Positions 4,896 through 47,813 of a stretch of DNA of 64,000 nucleotides are shown here, piece by piece. The DNA lies in contig JBAXXS010000001.1 of assembly GCA_037127835.1 (NCBI GenBank), positions 5,275-69,274 on the forward strand. Reading direction: 5' to 3'. The translations under genes and the position numbers were made by a program. The DNA is from Verrucomicrobiota bacterium. Its GTDB lineage: Bacteria > Verrucomicrobiota > Verrucomicrobiia > Chthoniobacterales > UBA6821. How positions within the stretch are numbered: the first letter of the stretch is position 1; each line of letters starts with the position of its first letter. The notes below the pieces were generated by a model. That model was not told the DNA's origin. It saw only the letters and a program-made list of their open reading frames with translations, and did no database searches.

Positions 4896-5519
4896 ATGTC
4901 AGACTTTCACGAAGAAAACGACGAGCTGCTGGACCTCGAACAAAACCCCTCTGCTGAGGAACTCCAGAATCAGGTTAAGAGAGCGCAATCCGAACTTCTT
5001 CAATTGCGCCAGCGTCAGGATCAGATCGAGAAGGAGAAGGAGCGTCTCGAAGAACTGACTCGTCGCCAGGAGGAGCTGGAGCGGGGGCGCAACGAGATCG
5101 CCGACAAACTCGGTCGCTCCATCATTCTGGTCCAACGTGAAACCGAGGAAGCACAGCGCCGTCTTGAACAGCTCAACACCATTCAGGATTCCTTTGCGGA
5201 GCATCTTCACAACCTTGAAGAGATCGAGCCCAAGTCATGGAACGGCCGTGACCTGCCCCGTGAATTAACCCGTGCGCTCGGCACCGTCGACGAGGCCCGC
5301 GCAGCGTATGCACGCTCTCACGCCAAGATCGCTCCCATCGGGGATCCTGAGACTGGGTTGAACGGCGAGGCCGGAGCGCTCTACCACGAAGGTGGGGATG
5401 GTGAGCAGGGGTTCGCTTACTGGCTTCAGAACGGACTGGCCTTCACGCTGCCACTCTTGATTCTCGGCACGACGGCCCTTTTTGTCTGGATCTGGCATCT
5501 GCTGACAGCTCCCAAATAA
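4896..5519 (+). CDS. Hypothetical tail-anchored coiled-coil membrane protein
   Basis: About 207 aa. The N-terminal ~110 aa are heptad-like and E/Q/R/L-rich. There is a single C-terminal TM segment (LAFTLPLLILGTTALFVWIWHLL). I recognise no family motif. A GTG at 4890 is an alternative start. Confidence 0.6.
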   Translation: MSDFHEENDELLDLEQNPSAEELQNQVKRAQSELLQLRQRQDQIEKEKERLEELTRRQEELERGRNEIADKLGRSIILVQRETEEAQRRLEQLNTIQDSFAEHLHNLEEIEPKSWNGRDLPRELTRALGTVDEARAAYARSHAKIAPIGDPETGLNGEAGALYHEGGDGEQGFAYWLQNGLAFTLPLLILGTTALFVWIWHLLTAPK

Positions 5520-5534
5520 GTCGTTCTCATTTTC

Positions 5535-5963
5535 ATGCCGACTCCCTCTCCCGGCCGCCGCAATGCCCGTCCCCGCCCAGCGGGACAATCGCCATTGCGC
5601 CCGAAGGCGAAGGCTCCGATAAACGACGACCGCTTGCGTCTCGAGAAGGATCTTGAGGAAATTCGGCAACAGGAGCTTCGGCTTAGGAAGCTCGAGGAGG
5701 AGATGAAGAGAAAGGTTGAGGAACTTCCCAAGAAGCTCGAAGAGCGCGAACGCAAGCAGCGGGAGAGGATCCACAAGCTCGCTGTCCTCACCGCAACCGA
5801 TCATGTCGGCCGTCCCCAAGACAAGCGCCATGCCCCGCTTCGGCAGGCCAATGGTGTGCGCCGCATGACCCTTACCGAGCAGCGCAGGTCGAGGATGCAA
5901 TTCCTGATGCTTTGCGCAGTGCTGGCGATCTTCCTAATCCTTCTTTGGAAATCCCTTCCCTGA
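5535..5963 (+). CDS. Hypothetical tail-anchored coiled-coil membrane protein (basic N-terminus)
   Basis: 142 aa. It has an R/P-rich N-terminus, a charged coiled coil (LEKDLEEIRQQELRLRKLEEEMKRKVEELPKKLEERERKQRE) and a C-terminal TM (FLMLCAVLAIFLILLW). It starts 15 nt after the previous gene. Confidence 0.55.
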   Translation: MPTPSPGRRNARPRPAGQSPLRPKAKAPINDDRLRLEKDLEEIRQQELRLRKLEEEMKRKVEELPKKLEERERKQRERIHKLAVLTATDHVGRPQDKRHAPLRQANGVRRMTLTEQRRSRMQFLMLCAVLAIFLILLWKSLP

Positions 5964-6045
5964 GGAGGTTGTCGGACCTCCCCGGCGGCTGCGGAGTCAC
6001 GATAAAGTACTCCTAATTTCCCCGACCGCAGGATAGTTTGAATCG

Positions 6046-7113
6046 ATGACCAAGGCCAACTCAACGAAGACCAAAGGGTCCCAGACAAAGAGTTCCGAAG
6101 GATCCTCGGCCGTCACTGTGGCTCGCGATTTATCGCGCCGTGCCTACCTCACGATGCTGGAGGCCCGTCTCCTTGAGGAAAAGCTGGCCGCGCTCTACCG
6201 TTCCGGAAAAATCGTCGGTGGTGTCTTTCTCGGACGGGGGCAGGAGGCCCTGAGCGTAGCGCTGGGGGTTCATCTGCGCCGGGGGGACATCTATGCTCCG
6301 CTCATCCGCGATCAGGCGGGAAGGCTTGCCTTCGGCGATACCACTTTAGACACACTCCGCACCTATCTCGGCTCCTCCCTAGGCTCCATGCGGGGACGCG
6401 ACGGGAACATTCACCGGGGACGTCCCTCGGAGGGATATCACGCGATGATCAGCCATCTAGGGGCCATGGTCTCCACTGTCTGCGGCGGCCTTGTGGCTAA
6501 GCGCTTTCGCGGTGAGAAGGGTGCCGTGGGTGCCACCTGCATCGGGGAAGGAGGCACCTCGACGGGAAGCTTCCACGAAGGAATGAATATGGCGGCGGTT
6601 GAGAACCTCCCTCTAGTCGTCGTGGTGGCCAACAACCAGTATTCCTATTCAACGCCCAACGACCGTCAGTTTGCCTGTTCCGATCTTCTTTCCAAGGCTG
6701 TCGGATATGGCGTGGCTGGCCATCGCGCCGTTGGCAACGATCTCGTCGATTGTCTCGGTGTGATTGGCGAAGCCGTAGCCGCCGCCCGTCGGGGCGAAGG
6801 TCCTCAGTTAGTGGTTGCTGATCTTCTCAGGCTTGTCGGGCATGGTGAGCACGACGATGCCTCCTACATACCCGAGGCCATGAAGAAATCACCGCTTGGA
6901 CGGGATTGCCTGGAACTCGCAAGGCATTCCCTCATTGAGCGGGAATGGTTGTCCCACGAGGAGGCCGACTCATGGCACAAAGCCGTCGAGAAAGAAGTCG
7001 AGGAGACTGCATCCAAGGTCATGAGGGAACCTGCTCCGGATCCTTCGGAGGAGGATTGGAATGCCTTTGCCTCCCCTTCCCTTGGCAGGAACCTTAAGCT
7101 TGGAGGGATCTAG
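6046..7113 (+). CDS. 2-oxoacid dehydrogenase E1 component, alpha subunit (TPP-dependent)
   Basis: 355 aa with a TPP-binding region (GEGGTSTGSFHEGMNMAAVENLPLVVVVANNQYSYSTP). It is followed directly by the E1 beta and E2 genes. Substrate (pyruvate, acetoin or branched-chain) cannot be determined here. Confidence 0.85.
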   Translation: MTKANSTKTKGSQTKSSEGSSAVTVARDLSRRAYLTMLEARLLEEKLAALYRSGKIVGGVFLGRGQEALSVALGVHLRRGDIYAPLIRDQAGRLAFGDTTLDTLRTYLGSSLGSMRGRDGNIHRGRPSEGYHAMISHLGAMVSTVCGGLVAKRFRGEKGAVGATCIGEGGTSTGSFHEGMNMAAVENLPLVVVVANNQYSYSTPNDRQFACSDLLSKAVGYGVAGHRAVGNDLVDCLGVIGEAVAAARRGEGPQLVVADLLRLVGHGEHDDASYIPEAMKKSPLGRDCLELARHSLIEREWLSHEEADSWHKAVEKEVEETASKVMREPAPDPSEEDWNAFASPSLGRNLKLGGI

Positions 7114-7120
7114 AGAACCC

Positions 7121-8098
7121 ATGAGCAGCATCACCTATCTGGAAGCAATACGCCTAGCGCAGCAGAGGGCTTTGAAAGAGGACCCAAGGGTCTTCATTTA
7201 TGGGCAAGACATCGGTGTGTTCGGCGGTGCGTTCAAGGCCACAAAGAATCTGGCTAAGGAATTTCCGGGCCGTGTTCTGGATGCTCCGATCAGCGAGGAT
7301 GCCATGGTGGGACTCGCCATCGGGGCAGCGGTCGAGGGGATGAGACCCATCGTTGAGATGCAGTTTGCTGACTTCTCCACTTGCGGTTTCAACCAGATCG
7401 TCAACCAGGCCGCCACGCTCCACTACCGCACCGGCACACACTGCCCCATCGTCGTGCGGCTTCCGAGCGGAGGAACACCGGGAAGCGGTCCGTTCCACAG
7501 TCAGAGCATGGAGGCTATCTACGCCCACTACCCCGGCCTGGTGGTGATGACTCCTGCGACCGTTGAGGATGCCTACACGATGCTGCTGGAGGCCATTGAA
7601 TTGGAGGATCCGGTGATCTTCTGCGAGCACAAGTTCCTCTACTACCATCTGAAGGCGGAGAATCTTCCTGCAACAGTTGGTGAGGCGCTTCCCTTCGGAA
7701 AAGCGCGGATCGCACGCCCCGGTAGAGACGCGACAATCGTGGCCTACAGCGCCATGGTTCACGAGGCGCTAGCCGCCGCCGAGGAACTTATTCAGGACGG
7801 CTATGAAATCGAGGTGGTGGATCTCAGAACGGTCCGTCCGATTGACACGGATACGATCCTTGCCTCCGTTGCTAGAACAGGACGTCTGCTTGTGGTTGGG
7901 GAGGCATGGCCCTGGGGAGGAGTTGCTGCAGAGGTCATCGCGCGCGTCGCCACCGAGGGATTTGGTCTCCTGGATGCCCCTCCACAGCGTCTCAATGCGA
8001 AGGAGACGCCTGTTCCCTACCATCCTGCCCTCTGGGGAACTCATCGTCCTACGGCCTCCTCCGTGGCTAATTCCCTGAGGCAACTTCTGGAGCTCTAA
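7121..8098 (+). CDS. 2-oxoacid dehydrogenase E1 component, beta subunit
   Basis: It shows a transketolase-like pyrimidine-binding pattern (RVLDAPISEDAMVGLAIGAAVEGMRPIVEMQFADF). ATG at 7121 is 8 nt after the E1 alpha stop. The ORF-track start at 7061 would overlap E1 alpha. Confidence 0.9.
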   Translation: MSSITYLEAIRLAQQRALKEDPRVFIYGQDIGVFGGAFKATKNLAKEFPGRVLDAPISEDAMVGLAIGAAVEGMRPIVEMQFADFSTCGFNQIVNQAATLHYRTGTHCPIVVRLPSGGTPGSGPFHSQSMEAIYAHYPGLVVMTPATVEDAYTMLLEAIELEDPVIFCEHKFLYYHLKAENLPATVGEALPFGKARIARPGRDATIVAYSAMVHEALAAAEELIQDGYEIEVVDLRTVRPIDTDTILASVARTGRLLVVGEAWPWGGVAAEVIARVATEGFGLLDAPPQRLNAKETPVPYHPALWGTHRPTASSVANSLRQLLEL

Positions 8099-9469: not shown

Positions 9470-10201
9470 ATGATGAAAAAACAACTCCTCCTCTTTCTTC
9501 TGCTCGGCTGTTTATCCCTTTCCCTGAAGGCCCAGAATGCCAATACCCAGCCTACCTCCCCGCCACCACCCGGTGAGTATGGTCCGATGGCCAAGTTGAG
9601 CGATGCGGAACGGGCTCAGGTGAAAGCTGCTCATGATAAAGCGATCCAGCAGAACCCCGCTTTAGATGAAAAAATGAAGGCTGCCCATCAAGCGAGGGGG
9701 GAAGCTAAAAAGTCCATGCATGACGCGATGATCGTAGTCGACCCGAGCGTTGAGCCTATTCTCGCTAAAATGATGCCTCCAAAATGGGCAGACAAACACG
9801 AGAGTGGCAAAAATGGCCCAAGCAGTCAGAGCGGCGGTCCCTCTCCTTCTACCATCTCCGCTGCAACCAATGCCAATGTTTGGCATCAAACTGGACGCCA
9901 TGAACCTCCGGGAATGGCCAATCTTACAGAGAGCGAGCGCCAGCAACTCAAGTCCCTCCATGAGCAGGTAAAGAACGATCCTTCCGTCATTGCTGCCAAG
10001 GAAGCAAAGCAGAGCGCCACGACTCCCGAGGCAAGACATGCGGCGGAGGAAACCATGCGCCAAGCAATGCATGATGCGATGATCAAGGCAGATAACTCTG
10101 TGGGGCCCATCCTTGAAAAACTTCGCCCAACTGGTGGAACTGGAGGTGGAGGAGCGGGGCAACCACCAGCCTCGCCTTCAGCTATGCCGATGGCTCAATA
10201 A
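9470..10201 (+). CDS. Secreted/periplasmic helical protein with two internal ~60-aa repeats
   Basis: The signal peptide is MMKKQLLLFLLLGCLSLSLKAQ. Two units run (L)S/T-E-x-E-R-x-Q-(V/L)K ... MHDAMI...P-I-L-x-K, and the C-terminus is G/P-rich. The ORF-track start at 9308 overlaps E2 and was rejected. Confidence 0.65.
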   Translation: MMKKQLLLFLLLGCLSLSLKAQNANTQPTSPPPPGEYGPMAKLSDAERAQVKAAHDKAIQQNPALDEKMKAAHQARGEAKKSMHDAMIVVDPSVEPILAKMMPPKWADKHESGKNGPSSQSGGPSPSTISAATNANVWHQTGRHEPPGMANLTESERQQLKSLHEQVKNDPSVIAAKEAKQSATTPEARHAAEETMRQAMHDAMIKADNSVGPILEKLRPTGGTGGGGAGQPPASPSAMPMAQ

Positions 10202-37660: not shown

Positions 37661-37736
37661 CACCCTATCGTCCAGTGGCCTAGGACACTCCCCTTTCACG
37701 GGAGTAACACGGGTTCGAATCCCGTTAGGGTGGCCA
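37661..37736 (+). tRNA. tRNA-Glu (anticodon UUC), CCA encoded
   Basis: I folded the cloverleaf by hand. Acceptor is CACCCTA/TAGGGTG, D arm GTCC/GGAC, anticodon stem CTCCC/GGGAG with loop CTTTCAC, and T arm ACGGG-TTCGAAT-CCCGT. The discriminator is G followed by CCA. Confidence 0.9.
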
Positions 37737-38008
37737 ACTTTGTTGGCGATCGCCGTAAGGCGAATTCGAACTCGTAGGGTTTGACTGCCATGCTGCGATC
37801 AGCAGCATTTCTCTCTTCCCTAGGGAAACTGCAGAGCCTGCCATTGGCAGGATCATCCCGTTAGGGTGGCCAACTTTGTTGGCGATCGCCGTAAGGCGAA
37901 TTCGAACTCGTAGGGTTTGACTGCCATGCTGCGATCAGCAGCATTTCTCTTTTTCTGTAGGGAAACTGCAGAGCCTGCTTTAGCAGGATCATCCCGTTAG
38001 GGTGGCCA
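37719..38008 (+). repeat. 136-bp tandem repeat (2 full units plus the tRNA copy) in which each unit ends with the last 18 nt of tRNA-Glu
   Basis: ATCCCGTTAGGGTGGCCA occurs at 37719-37736 (in the tRNA), 37855-37872 and 37991-38008, giving an exact 136-bp period. The units are near-identical apart from a few substitutions and indels. Confidence 0.9.
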
Positions 38009-38069
38009 GTTTCTTGGTTAGATGGCGCGAGTGCCTTGACTCAGGGCTAACGTCGGGGAAGATACATGG

Positions 38070-39083
38070 ATGAGTAAGACCCGATTCGGACTTGATCTCC
38101 TACGCAGGATGCGGCGCAACCGCGCCACACCCGCCGTGCGTTCGCTGGTCCGAGAGACCGTTTTGCGTCCCGAGGATCTCATTCAACCTCTCTTTGTCCG
38201 TGCAGGTGAGGGAGTTCCTGAGCCCGTTGAGTCGATGCCCGGAGTGGTCCGGCATACAGTGGAGTCTCTGATCGAGAAGTGCCGTCACCTGGAGCAGGTC
38301 GGAATCAGGGCGATGGCAATTTTTCCTTGCATCGAGGGCTCGAAAAAGAACCCCGAAGGCTCCCATGCCCATGCCGCGGAGAATGTTCTTTTTTTAGCGA
38401 TTCGTGCGGTGAAAGAGGCCTGCCCGGGCTTAGCCATTGTCGCTGATGTGGCTCTCGATCCCTACACCGACCATGGTCATGACGGGTTGCTGGATGCCCG
38501 TGGTGGGGTCGAGAACGATTCCACGGTGGAGGCGCTGAAGAAGTTGGCCGTAGCGCAGGCGGAAGCCGGGGCTGATATCGTCGCCCCCTCTGACATGATG
38601 GATGGGCGAGTGAAGGCGATCCGCATGGCACTGGATGCCGCCGGTTTTCATGAGACTGGGATTCTGGCCTATGCTGCCAAATATGCTTCCGCTTACTACG
38701 GACCGTTCCGGGATGCGCTGAAGGGTGGCGATGGTCAGTCAACCGGCAAGTTGGACAAACGCGGCTACCAGATGGATCCGGGCAATGTGCGTGAGGCCCT
38801 GCATGAGGTGCAACTCGACGAGGAGGAGGGGGCCGACATAGTGATGGTGAAGCCCGCTGGTCCCTACCTCGATATTATCCGTGCTGTGCGTGGGCACACA
38901 CTACTTCCTGTCGCGGCCTATCAGGTCTCCGGCGAATATGCCCAGATCCATGCAGCCGCCCAGTTGGGATGGCTCGACTACGAAGCGACGCGAAATGAAT
39001 CGCTGCTTGCCATCAAGCGAGCCGGCGCCGACATGATCCTGACCTATTTTGCGGCGGAGGTCGCCGCATCGCTGAAACTATGA
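38070..39083 (+). CDS. hemB: Porphobilinogen synthase (delta-aminolevulinate dehydratase)
   Basis: 337 aa, with RRNRATPAVRSLVRET, DVALDPYTDHGHDG, SDMMDGR, VMVKPAGPYLDI and YQVSGEYA. Confidence 0.95.
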   Translation: MSKTRFGLDLLRRMRRNRATPAVRSLVRETVLRPEDLIQPLFVRAGEGVPEPVESMPGVVRHTVESLIEKCRHLEQVGIRAMAIFPCIEGSKKNPEGSHAHAAENVLFLAIRAVKEACPGLAIVADVALDPYTDHGHDGLLDARGGVENDSTVEALKKLAVAQAEAGADIVAPSDMMDGRVKAIRMALDAAGFHETGILAYAAKYASAYYGPFRDALKGGDGQSTGKLDKRGYQMDPGNVREALHEVQLDEEEGADIVMVKPAGPYLDIIRAVRGHTLLPVAAYQVSGEYAQIHAAAQLGWLDYEATRNESLLAIKRAGADMILTYFAAEVAASLKL

Positions 39084-47537: not shown

Positions 47538-47611
47538 CGGGGCGTAGCTCAGCTTGGTAGAGCGCTTGGTTTGGGACCAAGAAGTCGCAGGTTCGAATCC
47601 TGTCGCCCCGA
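47538..47611 (+). tRNA. tRNA-Pro (anticodon UGG), CCA not encoded
   Basis: Hand-folded. Acceptor is CGGGGCG/CGCCCCG, D arm GCTC/GAGC, anticodon stem CTTGG/CCAAG with loop TTTGGGA, and T arm GCAGG-TTCGAAT-CCTGT. The discriminator is A. Confidence 0.9.
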
Positions 47612-47791
47612 TTTTTCTTTCGACAGGATGAGAACTTCAGTTCGATTGATTCGCTCGCGCCCGCTCGGCTCACCCTAAAGGGCTGTGCTGCCGCACAGTC
47701 TATCCATGCCGACCCCTCGGCGATGTATTGCCTGCGCTGTGCGCATTGCTCCTGAGCGAAGCCATTTTTGCAGAGCCCAGCCTGCTGGGAT

Positions 47792-47813
47792 AATCCTGTC
47801 GCCCGATTTTTTT
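47792..47813 (+). repeat. Direct repeat of the tRNA-Pro 3' end plus its T-run
   Basis: AATCCTGTCGCCCGATTTTTTT matches AATCCTGTCGCCCCGATTTTT at 47596-47616 with one C deleted. It lies 196 bp downstream of the original. Confidence 0.8.

Follow-up and report, generated by a model that had tools for sequence, protein, structure and literature searches.

tRNA genes are classic docking sites of mobile DNA, and repeats of their tails are usually read as its footprints. How is a tRNA tail to be understood that stands three times at one locus, in strict tandem and at an even spacing? The question is raised by a 136-bp tandem array behind the tRNA-Glu gene on contig JBAXXS010000001.1 of a Verrucomicrobiota bacterium, analysed here within a stretch of 64,000 nucleotides (the window). 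An earlier interpretation made from the letters of this DNA alone (the sequence-only reading) had taken the array for a tandemly amplified integration scar. Comparative evidence partly supports this idea: the amplification stands, the privacy of the scar does not, and the account appears incomplete, since the units form a conserved, structured family of two types behind two tRNAs. Short (~115-145 bp), non-coding, hairpin-rich units of a lineage-wide family stand behind tRNAs in freshwater Chthoniobacterales, and the array is one of their loci. On the reading favoured here, which is given a probability of roughly 0.55, the units would be miniature, integrase-less remnants flanked by attachment (att) sites, amplified and homogenised by recombination, that now act as tRNA trailer and terminator and whose cores still serve as docking sites.

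The core of the array, ATCCCGTTAGGGTGGCCA, comprises the last 18 nt of the tRNA gene and recurs exactly at 37719, 37855 and 37991, as had been claimed (chance expectation 0.01; three matches in 0/100 shuffles). No fourth copy lies in the 64-kb window, even at <=3 mismatches. Tandem Repeats Finder (TRF) gives a period of 136 with 2.1 copies, 95% matches and a score of 529. The two units differ at 7 positions in total and at a single position in their first 99 nt, and the 118-nt segments between the cores are 94% identical, close to the near-identity first described. The array was also said to fill the whole spacer up to hemB; this is not the case, as 61 nt (38009-38069) separate the third core from the gene and hold a conserved promoter-like motif. 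The absence of an integrase and of cargo from the window was borne out (tblastn with the integrase of contig L001, described below).

Contigs with L numbers are relatives' loci, viral contigs or the Escherichia coli reference with which the window was compared. The sequence-only reading had pointed to related genomes as the place to look for the unit, and homologous units are indeed present there: when metagenomes were scanned for the core with CGTAGGGTTTGA at 25-50 nt beyond it, 16 contigs were returned, five of them with two tandem matches. The motif is common to the window unit and the L001 spacer at equal offset. A unit-internal 25-mer had no matches in the JGI metagenomes. The number of units behind tRNA-Glu in the relatives ranges from one to three; there are two types, A and B, whose order varies. 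These copy numbers are minimum estimates because short-read assemblies break inside arrays; L089 and L099, for example, are two pieces of a single array from one metagenome, with the break inside it. An N-gap is also seen at tRNA-Pro in L113 (~9840-9850), and the L089 and L099 contigs end at tRNA-linked repeats.

Both types have in common the first ~48 nt, with hairpins H0, H1 and H2, and the terminal core. They diverge directly 3' of H2, and their 3' bodies are unrelated: type A ends in ...GGGTTTGA-GCCGAG...ATCA-core, and type B, the type of the window, in ...GGGTTTGA-CTGCCATGC...TGCAGAGCC-hairpin-GGATC-core. The order tRNA-A-(decayed core)-hemB is found in L091 and L094, tRNA-A-B in L086/L096, L090/L098 and L097, tRNA-B-B-hemB in the window, L101 and L100, and tRNA-A-short-A in L088/L093. 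The units are non-coding, 101-145 nt long and arranged head-to-tail; core spacings in independent assemblies are 136/136 (L101), 137/137 (L095) and 135/135 (L100). Their orientation is that of the tRNA at every locus, with hemB either downstream or divergent, and since both arrangements carry the array, the association is with the tRNA and not with hemB. Dispersed repeats of the REP or MITE type would have many copies at unrelated intergenic sites; in the window and in ~1 Mb of related loci, every unit stands behind either tRNA-Glu or tRNA-Pro.

The units evolve in concert. Identity is 93-98% within a genome, 88-94% with the same-position units of the closest relative and 69-92% between genomes overall. 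Both units of a genome have its specific substitutions in common (GGCGATCGCC and AACTCG in the window, GGCAATCGCC and AACCCG in L101 and L095), L095 has its own terminator-stem variant in both units, and the A and B units of L090 are identical over the first 46 nt. The cores follow the tRNA that they stand behind: among 16 non-redundant cores outside tRNA genes, 12 equal their own tRNA, three have one difference and one has two. Every core has the position-72 base of its own tRNA, C in the majority of genomes but G in the window, L101, L095 and L099/L089 (one organism, of which L089 holds cores but no tRNA). The G72 tRNAs start with C, so that C1:G72 (window positions 37661 and 37732) replaces the relatives' usual G1:C72, the pair that serves as an identity element for E. 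coli GluRS. By its HemB, L099 groups with L090 (87%), a G1:C72 genome; the flip is thus found in two HemB clades, and either it came about on two occasions or it was transferred. Conversion may have carried it into the tRNA gene from one of the repeat copies.

Unequal crossing-over together with gene conversion would be the simplest account of this homogenisation. The core and the common 5' part of the units are direct repeats, through which units could be gained, lost, shuffled and homogenised. Both processes, seeded in the common 5' segment, would move leftward past the core and stop in the T-loop, where homology with the tRNA body ends, and homogenisation would in this way extend into the 3' end of the tRNA gene itself.

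Both tRNA genes of the window carry units of this one family. The unit behind tRNA-Pro has a left end, CGACAGGAT (47621-47629), complementary to the 3' strand of that tRNA, followed by an H2-like hairpin (47630-47645), a hairpin TGCGC-TGT-GCGCA (47733-47745) and TGCAGAGCC with a hairpin (47769-47789). At the end of the unit stand a repeat of the 3' end of tRNA-Pro, ATCCTGTCGCCC-GA (47793-47806), and a T-run. Its homology to the type-B unit of L099 is clear (score 46; 0/500 shuffles as good), and the Pro and Glu type-B units have in common GAGAAC-TTCA-GTTCGACTGCC, a short hairpin with TT, GCGAAGCCATTCTTGCAGAGCC, a further hairpin and GATA-ATCC. Three compensatory pair changes separate the Glu from the Pro version of the hairpin ahead of the junction (CCTGCC/GGCAGG vs CCCAG/CTGGG), and H0 has its counterpart in the complementarity between the left end GCGACAGGAT and the tRNA-Pro strand ATCCTGTCGC. 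The right-end module, TGCAGAGCC with hairpin H5, recurs in every type-B unit as well as behind tRNA-Pro.

This second family locus is also polymorphic. L117, whose neighbouring aminotransferase is 91% identical, has two tandem units of 116 and 115 nt that are 92% identical to each other (87-317) and homologous to the window unit, with the tRNA-Pro tail at 72-86, 188-202 and 303-317; relative to it, the window unit has an extra internal insertion of 80 nt (~47650-47730). In L091, L109, L114/L115, L116 and L119 the site is empty, and the tRNA is joined directly to what follows the repeat in the window. Seven relatives' loci, representing six lineages, have no unit behind tRNA-Pro. L117 apart, no tRNA-Pro tail repeat was present in the eight other tRNA-Pro loci searched; in L110-L112, which lack one, the tRNA is followed by a 370-nt spacer. 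This spacer (L110 9631-10000, also L111 and L112) compares with 81-104 nt elsewhere and contains a called 36-aa open reading frame (ORF) on the minus strand. Like their gene, the tRNA-Pro copies have no CCA, and they extend into the genomic T-run behind it; hence the duplication took place at the DNA level and not via a mature tRNA. An RNA-mediated or tRNA-primed origin is contradicted by these copies and was rejected.

What happens at the tRNA-Glu tail of relatives speaks to the att nature of the repeats. In L001 (HemB 81% identical) no tRNA stands upstream of hemB, only the fragment TTCGAATCCCGTTAGGGTCGCCA, 127 nt upstream of hemB and 50 nt from the start of a divergent 448-aa Phage_integrase (PF00589) gene, with TrbI-like and HTH_17-like genes beyond. 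In L002, L014 and L116 a full tRNA is followed by element-type sequence with HTH- or excisionase-like genes. Five viral contigs from IMG/VR hold a 23-nt tRNA-Glu end without any full tRNA, and three of the five (L082, L083, L085) encode integrases 28-33% identical to the L001 protein. In the islets described next, in the L001 element and in the viral fragments alike, the 23-nt block begins at the first base of the T-loop, the sub-location of strand exchange mapped for the Ms6 integrase (PMC1762012).

Cargo is found between cores. L087/L092 carry a 3.9-kb islet with AbiEii/AbiEi, metallophosphoesterase and HTH_17 genes between two 23-nt repeats (L087 1119-5022), for which L091/L094 are the matching empty site. 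In L095 a 2.2-kb HipA/HipB islet lies behind tRNA-B-B, beyond the third core (5166-7401), and its right junction, ...GGGAGTAACACGGGTT-TGACTGCC..., reads as a putative GGGTT-microhomology deletion into a third B unit. In L089 a Fic gene with DUF4172 lies between cores (98-1781). None of these islets encodes an integrase, and thus they fit the definition of cis-mobilizable elements (CIMEs) and of accretion. The sequence-only reading had offered att-site remnants and a recombination hotspot among its explanations; both views gain support from the comparisons with relatives, in which the repeated tRNA ends behave as integrase att cores and the locus as a hotspot of recombination and integration. 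The islets between cores all bear toxin-antitoxin or defence-type genes. The right arms of the L087 and L095 islets have an anticodon-arm and T-arm mimic resembling tRNA-Glu (GCTCCCGATTGGGAGCAATCGGCTTCGAATCC...).

The favoured account builds on these data as follows. The units would descend from elements integrated at tRNA genes by tyrosine integrases, as CIME-like mini-islands, and the 18-nt cores would be their att cores, which are direct repeats of the tRNA 3' part that lie 3' of the gene and are co-oriented with it (in the window, the 16 relatives' contigs and the tRNA-Pro repeat 47793-47806). H2 would be a still older, degenerate core. The sequence-only reading had noted a second, degenerate stretch similar to a tRNA 3' half at 37762-37790, and this is a real, conserved feature: H2 aligns to the 23-nt block (TTCGAA-CCCGT-AGGGT...GCCA), is almost invariant across units, and matches L001 at 15/16 nt at equal offset from CCA (0/500 shuffles as good). 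Several cores, including that of the tRNA itself, would remain landing sites for integrative elements and for toxin-antitoxin and defence islets. The unit would be a trailer of the tRNA, in which the T-tailed, terminator-like stem probably ends tRNA-Glu transcription before the hemB promoter. The proposed terminator cassette would thus survive as one function of the unit and not as its whole explanation.

Several observations weigh against this account. The cores of the small units match only 18-19 nt, from the last 2-3 bases of the T-loop, and are preceded by GGATC or ATCA; their identity starts after the first 5 T-loop nucleotides (GGATC-ATCC, ATCA-ATCC), whereas true elements match the whole T-loop, and for this reason they may not be substrates for an integrase that exchanges strands there. 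A circle of 116-136 bp is unlikely as a recombination intermediate. No full-length element with type-A or type-B arms beside an integrase was found, and the units have no significant similarity to viral or islet att arms. H0, H1, H3 and H5 stay paired through two-sided changes, even between Glu and Pro versions, which is unexpected for neutral scars and argues for selection on RNA or on single-stranded DNA structure. The left ends of the units are complementary to the 3' end of the cognate tRNA (6-8 bp for Glu, 10 bp for Pro), and this needs a specific explanation.

Against the P and P' arms of five viral att fragments, the unit gave one 10-mer with L081 (22/1000 shuffles), which is unconvincing. 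The exact 18-mer in its G72 variant had no matches in the viral contigs, and those of the H2 17-mer and of a degenerate 18-mer proved to be chance matches and phage tRNA clusters with full tRNAs.

CIMEs are a precedent for the favoured account. As in CIMEs, there are several direct repeats of a tRNA or tmRNA 3' end, integrase-less segments lie between them, new elements insert at one repeat and the repeat number varies between strains. Known CIMEs, however, are kilobases long and bear genes, whereas the units here are non-coding, near-identical, 101-145 bp long and in strict tandem, with conserved hairpins that undergo compensatory changes. CIMEs and tandem accretion at tRNA or tmRNA att sites also occur in Streptococcus thermophilus (ICESt1/3). 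Dehalococcoides has tandem islands at ssrA with 20-bp repeats, CIME formation and accretion, and an insertion point in the T-loop (PMC3146451). The tycheposon islands of Prochlorococcus comprise full and partial tRNA copies, degenerate remnants and cargo between partial tRNAs, and successive integrations push older elements inward (10.1101/2020.12.28.424599). Unlike the cores of the array, the partial tRNAs of these islands stand between elements with genes, or the debris of such elements, and no uniform tandem run of one short, structured unit is described.

An ordered series of ~60-140 bp sites that are defined by structure more than by sequence, with toxin-antitoxin cassettes as typical cargo, also recalls integron attC arrays. 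Unlike integrons, the array has no intI or attI adjoining it, and its repeated part is a conserved tRNA tail in place of a structure-only attC. Where an attC forms one long imperfect hairpin, the unit folds as a series of short ones. The array is not a member of an integron attC family.

Among the alternatives, the one that survives best is possible, if clearly less probable than the favoured account: the units would be functional RNAs comparable to E. coli RtT, transcribed together with the tRNA and yielding structured small RNAs on processing, or acting in cis as modules for processing, stability or termination. The tRNA-tail copy and its H0 partner would then be functional, and att use secondary. 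The structures of the units, whose positions are collected in Table 1, are one argument for it. The sequence-only reading had recognised the hairpin on the CCA end, the 7-bp hairpin with its T/C run and the 6-bp hairpin with a paired change between units (CG to UA, alignment columns 129:133), and each is confirmed. RNAalifold renders type-A and type-B units as chains of short hairpins, and in an alignment of the 5' part of 20 distinct units 96.7% of cells pair, vs 24-50% when the partners are slid. H0, which joins the last bases of a tRNA or core (71-76 where position 72 is C) to the left end of the next unit, is paired in 100% of cells over the 20 units, with AU, UA, GC and CG at its inner position, and also appears in the minimum free energy fold. 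H1 is paired in 98.9% of cells, with 4 pairs changed on both sides (CGCC/GGCG, GTCC/GGAC, TGTC/GACA).

Table 1. Coordinates of the features of the tRNA-Glu and tRNA-Pro loci in the window.
Feature	Position	Second copy	Strand	Basis
tRNA-Glu(UUC), encoded CCA, unusual C1:G72 acceptor pair	37661..37736		+	ARAGORN; Rfam tRNA model, 62.1 bits; relatives' G1:C72 genes
Core copy 1, last 18 nt of the tRNA (T-loop end, T-stem 3' strand, acceptor 3' strand, G73, CCA)	37719..37736		+	
Unit 1, type B, 136 nt: 118-nt hairpin-rich body and core copy 2 (37855-37872)	37737..37872		+	TRF; repeat finder; homologous units in L086-L101
Unit 2, type B, 136 nt: body and core copy 3 (37991-38008)	37873..38008		+	Body 94% identical to unit 1
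H0, GCCAAC-TTT-GTTGGC: discriminator and CCA of the preceding core paired with the unit left end	37733..37747	37869-37883	+	
H1, TCGCC-GTAA-GGCGA	37750..37763	37886-37899	+	
H2, TCGAACTC-GTA-GGGTTTGA: degenerate second tRNA 3' block, extends to 37790	37766..37784	37902-37920	+	
Terminator-like hairpin, ATGCTGC-GATCA-GCAGCAT, T/C-rich tail	37790..37818	37926-37954	+	Terminator scan
Right-end module, TGCAGAGCC, hairpin H5 (CCTGCC-ATT-GGCAGG; CCTGCT/AGCAGG in the other unit) and ATC, abuts core	37830..37854	37967-37990	+	
Promoter-like motif TTGACT-N17-AAGATA, 5 nt before the hemB ATG; native flank, outside the units	38036..38064		+	Conserved in 8 relatives
hemB (delta-aminolevulinic acid dehydratase), downstream neighbour	38070..39083		+	Pfam ALAD, 2.4e-131
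tRNA-Pro(UGG), no encoded CCA; second unit-bearing tRNA of the window	47538..47611		+	ARAGORN; Rfam
tRNA-Pro-linked unit, 195 nt	47612..47806		+	

The type-B hairpin with a terminator-like shape also fits such an RNA. A terminator scan made 8 calls against 1.0 expected in shuffles, both copies of this hairpin among them. Its stem of 7 bp (4 G-C pairs) with a 5-nt loop has a predicted energy of -10.9 kcal/mol and is followed by a mixed T/C tail, TTTCTCTCTT or TTTCTCTTTTT; in relatives, pairing of the stem is kept through CG-to-UA changes at two positions. A left end tailored to each cognate tRNA and the co-orientation of units and tRNA at every locus argue in the same direction, as does the annotation of the E. 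coli analogue as a small RNA. When the strand asymmetry of wobble pairs was used to tell RNA from DNA, G-T (G-U in the RNA) outnumbered A-C mismatches by 24 to 5 on the + strand, although 16/24 represent one inherited pair, and single units have only modest folding z-scores (-1.2 to -3.6); RNA-level selection on the units is for these two reasons only suggested. The units match no Rfam family, RtT and tRNA included, at the gathering threshold or at E <= 10, and they are dispensable, as seen from the empty tRNA-Pro site of most relatives and from a tRNA-Glu array of anywhere between one and three units. The palindromes could moreover be protein-binding sites that co-evolve with the element. A small ORF within the unit (ATG at 37790) was set aside, as on inspection of the sequence its frame is lost in L095 through an indel.

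The comparison with E. coli bears on function and origin alike. At the tyrT locus of E. coli K-12 (NC_000913, 1286300-1287900), where rttR and tpr are annotated, TRF finds a period of 178 with 3.1 copies and 95% matches. The units behind tyrV each end in AATCCTTCCCCCACCACCA, the last 19 nt of tRNA-Tyr, and the RtT element occurs at 1-14 places per E. coli genome. The RNA is catalogued as rtT/RttR, Rfam RF00391, from a tyrT/tyrV repeat of 178 bp x 3.14. The rtT RNA of the tyrT operon has been proposed to be functional, and the repeats were reportedly described originally by Egan and Landy in 1978, by Rossi et al. in 1981 and by Bosl and Kersten in 1991. The 178-bp unit contains an internal, degenerate T-arm-like stretch (AAGGTTCGACTCGAG). 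Both systems are tandem arrays directly behind a tRNA in which every unit ends in the tRNA tail, CCA included (19 nt in E. coli), identity starts at the last 3 T-loop nucleotides (AATCC... in E. coli), a second, degenerate T-arm-like stretch lies within the unit, and the copy number varies between strains. They differ in the absence of any sequence or covariance-model similarity, in phylum and in tRNA; the array here has two unit types, two tRNAs with cognate-specific ends and no conserved small ORF, and its cores bound inserted islets in relatives. We know of no description of insertions bounded by tyrT repeats. By these comparisons, the tyrT/RtT repeat is the closest known analogue of the window array, which is not itself a member of the RtT family.

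A second alternative, judged rather improbable, makes the units still active: miniature elements consisting only of att arms and a core, moved in trans by a resident or visiting integrase, retargeted by exchange of the core with the complementary left end, and brought into tandem by repeated integration. The presence/absence polymorphism at tRNA-Pro, with its exact target repeats, is in keeping with such mobility, and homologous arms at two tRNAs, tandem copies at both and the retention of both arms in independent loci are consistent with it. L099, moreover, combines a unit like those of the window clade and G72 with a different HemB background. On the other side, no partner integrase has been identified, steric constraints disfavour a circle of 116-136 bp, the junction in its T-loop part mismatches the T-loop of the target, and the sample consists of two tRNA loci and one insertion polymorphism.

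Descent from tandem tRNA-Glu genes whose bodies degenerated while the 3' ends were kept has been largely refuted, and little weight is left to it. The arithmetic is attractive, as a tRNA of 76 nt and a plausible 60-nt spacer add up to 136; the hairpin before the core resembles the remnant of a T- or anticodon-arm (GCAGG-ATCAT-CCCGT), and H2 a tRNA 3' half. However, a permissive tRNA covariance search (E <= 10) scores only the true tRNAs and nothing in the units, similarity to a tRNA 5' half is absent, unit lengths of 101-145 nt and two unrelated bodies do not fit, and the same body stands behind tRNA-Pro. An assembly artefact, a prospect that the sequence-only reading had itself raised, or a chance repeat is very unlikely: short-read assemblies do break in arrays (the L089/L099 split, the L113 N-gap at tRNA-Pro), but the units differ at 7 positions and are hence resolvable, many independent metagenome assemblies give the same architecture, and the shuffles never yielded three core copies.

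Under the favoured reading of amplified att remnants, what would ordinarily be a footprint is here a heritable, structured and tandemly amplifying module, found clade-wide behind two tRNAs with matched tails and complements. The array would supply several docking sites, at which relatives hold toxin-antitoxin and defence cassettes. Co-homogenisation with the tRNA gene means that a neutral change in a repeat can reach the acceptor stem, for which the C1:G72 flip is the candidate case. The family also provides an independent, comparable case for E. coli tyrT/RtT, and makes both an origin from integration scars and a function as trailer RNA testable. A more far-reaching proposal, which is held as speculative and unlikely, is that the units are self-propagating tRNA-trailer modules (~115-145 bp) that bear a tail copy at one end and its complement at the other, multiply in tandem and retarget to a different tRNA by swapping both. 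If true, such modules would act as integrase-mobilised miniature elements or as selected trailer RNAs and would also offer toxin-antitoxin and defence cassettes several sites at which to land; the E. coli tyrT/RtT repeats, a puzzle since 1978, would be accounted for along the same lines, and array-driven gene conversion would flip a tRNA identity pair (G1:C72 to C1:G72).

The closest relatives by HemB are Spartobacteria/Chthoniobacterales metagenome-assembled genomes (Verrucomicrobiota), at <=81% identity among genome representatives, which identifies the host as a freshwater Chthoniobacterales/"Spartobacteria" verrucomicrobium and not a cyanobacterium. An exact look-up of the window's HemB matched no record. 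The genes around the array are aspS, GlgX/isoamylase, tRNA-Glu, hemB, two YkuD genes, an ABC-2 permease and phosphoglucomutase. Upstream of hemB, L001, L087, L091, L095, L097, L100 and L101 have a conserved CCTTGACT-N16/17-GAAGATA, as at window 38036-38069. A sigma-70 scan made no call at the promoter-like motif (38036..38064); if it is a promoter, the hemB mRNA would have no leader or almost none. Throughout the Chthoniobacterales (window, L014, L086, L090, L099, L116), tRNA-Glu and hemB are neighbours, in tandem or divergent and ~100-140 nt apart. The C5 route uses tRNA-Glu as its substrate, and HemB consumes the 5-aminolevulinate to which it leads; the linkage may be more than chance.

The palindrome GCGATCGC, listed by the sequence-only reading as part of each unit, is present at 37746 and 37882; it is GCAATCGC in L101 and L095, and because it is not conserved in relatives it carries no signal. 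Its identification with the cyanobacterial HIP1 was rejected, given a verrucomicrobial host, a mild enrichment and GCAATCGC in the closest relatives. The palindrome occurs 7 times in the window (e.g., 33225, 36519, 41548) vs 2.9 expected, a number reached in 0/100 shuffles, and this excess may reflect a palindrome bias of the Dam/PvuI type or chance. Finally, in L109 (2436-3714) a Phage_integrase gene directly adjoins tRNA-Val and probably represents another tRNA-linked element in the clade.

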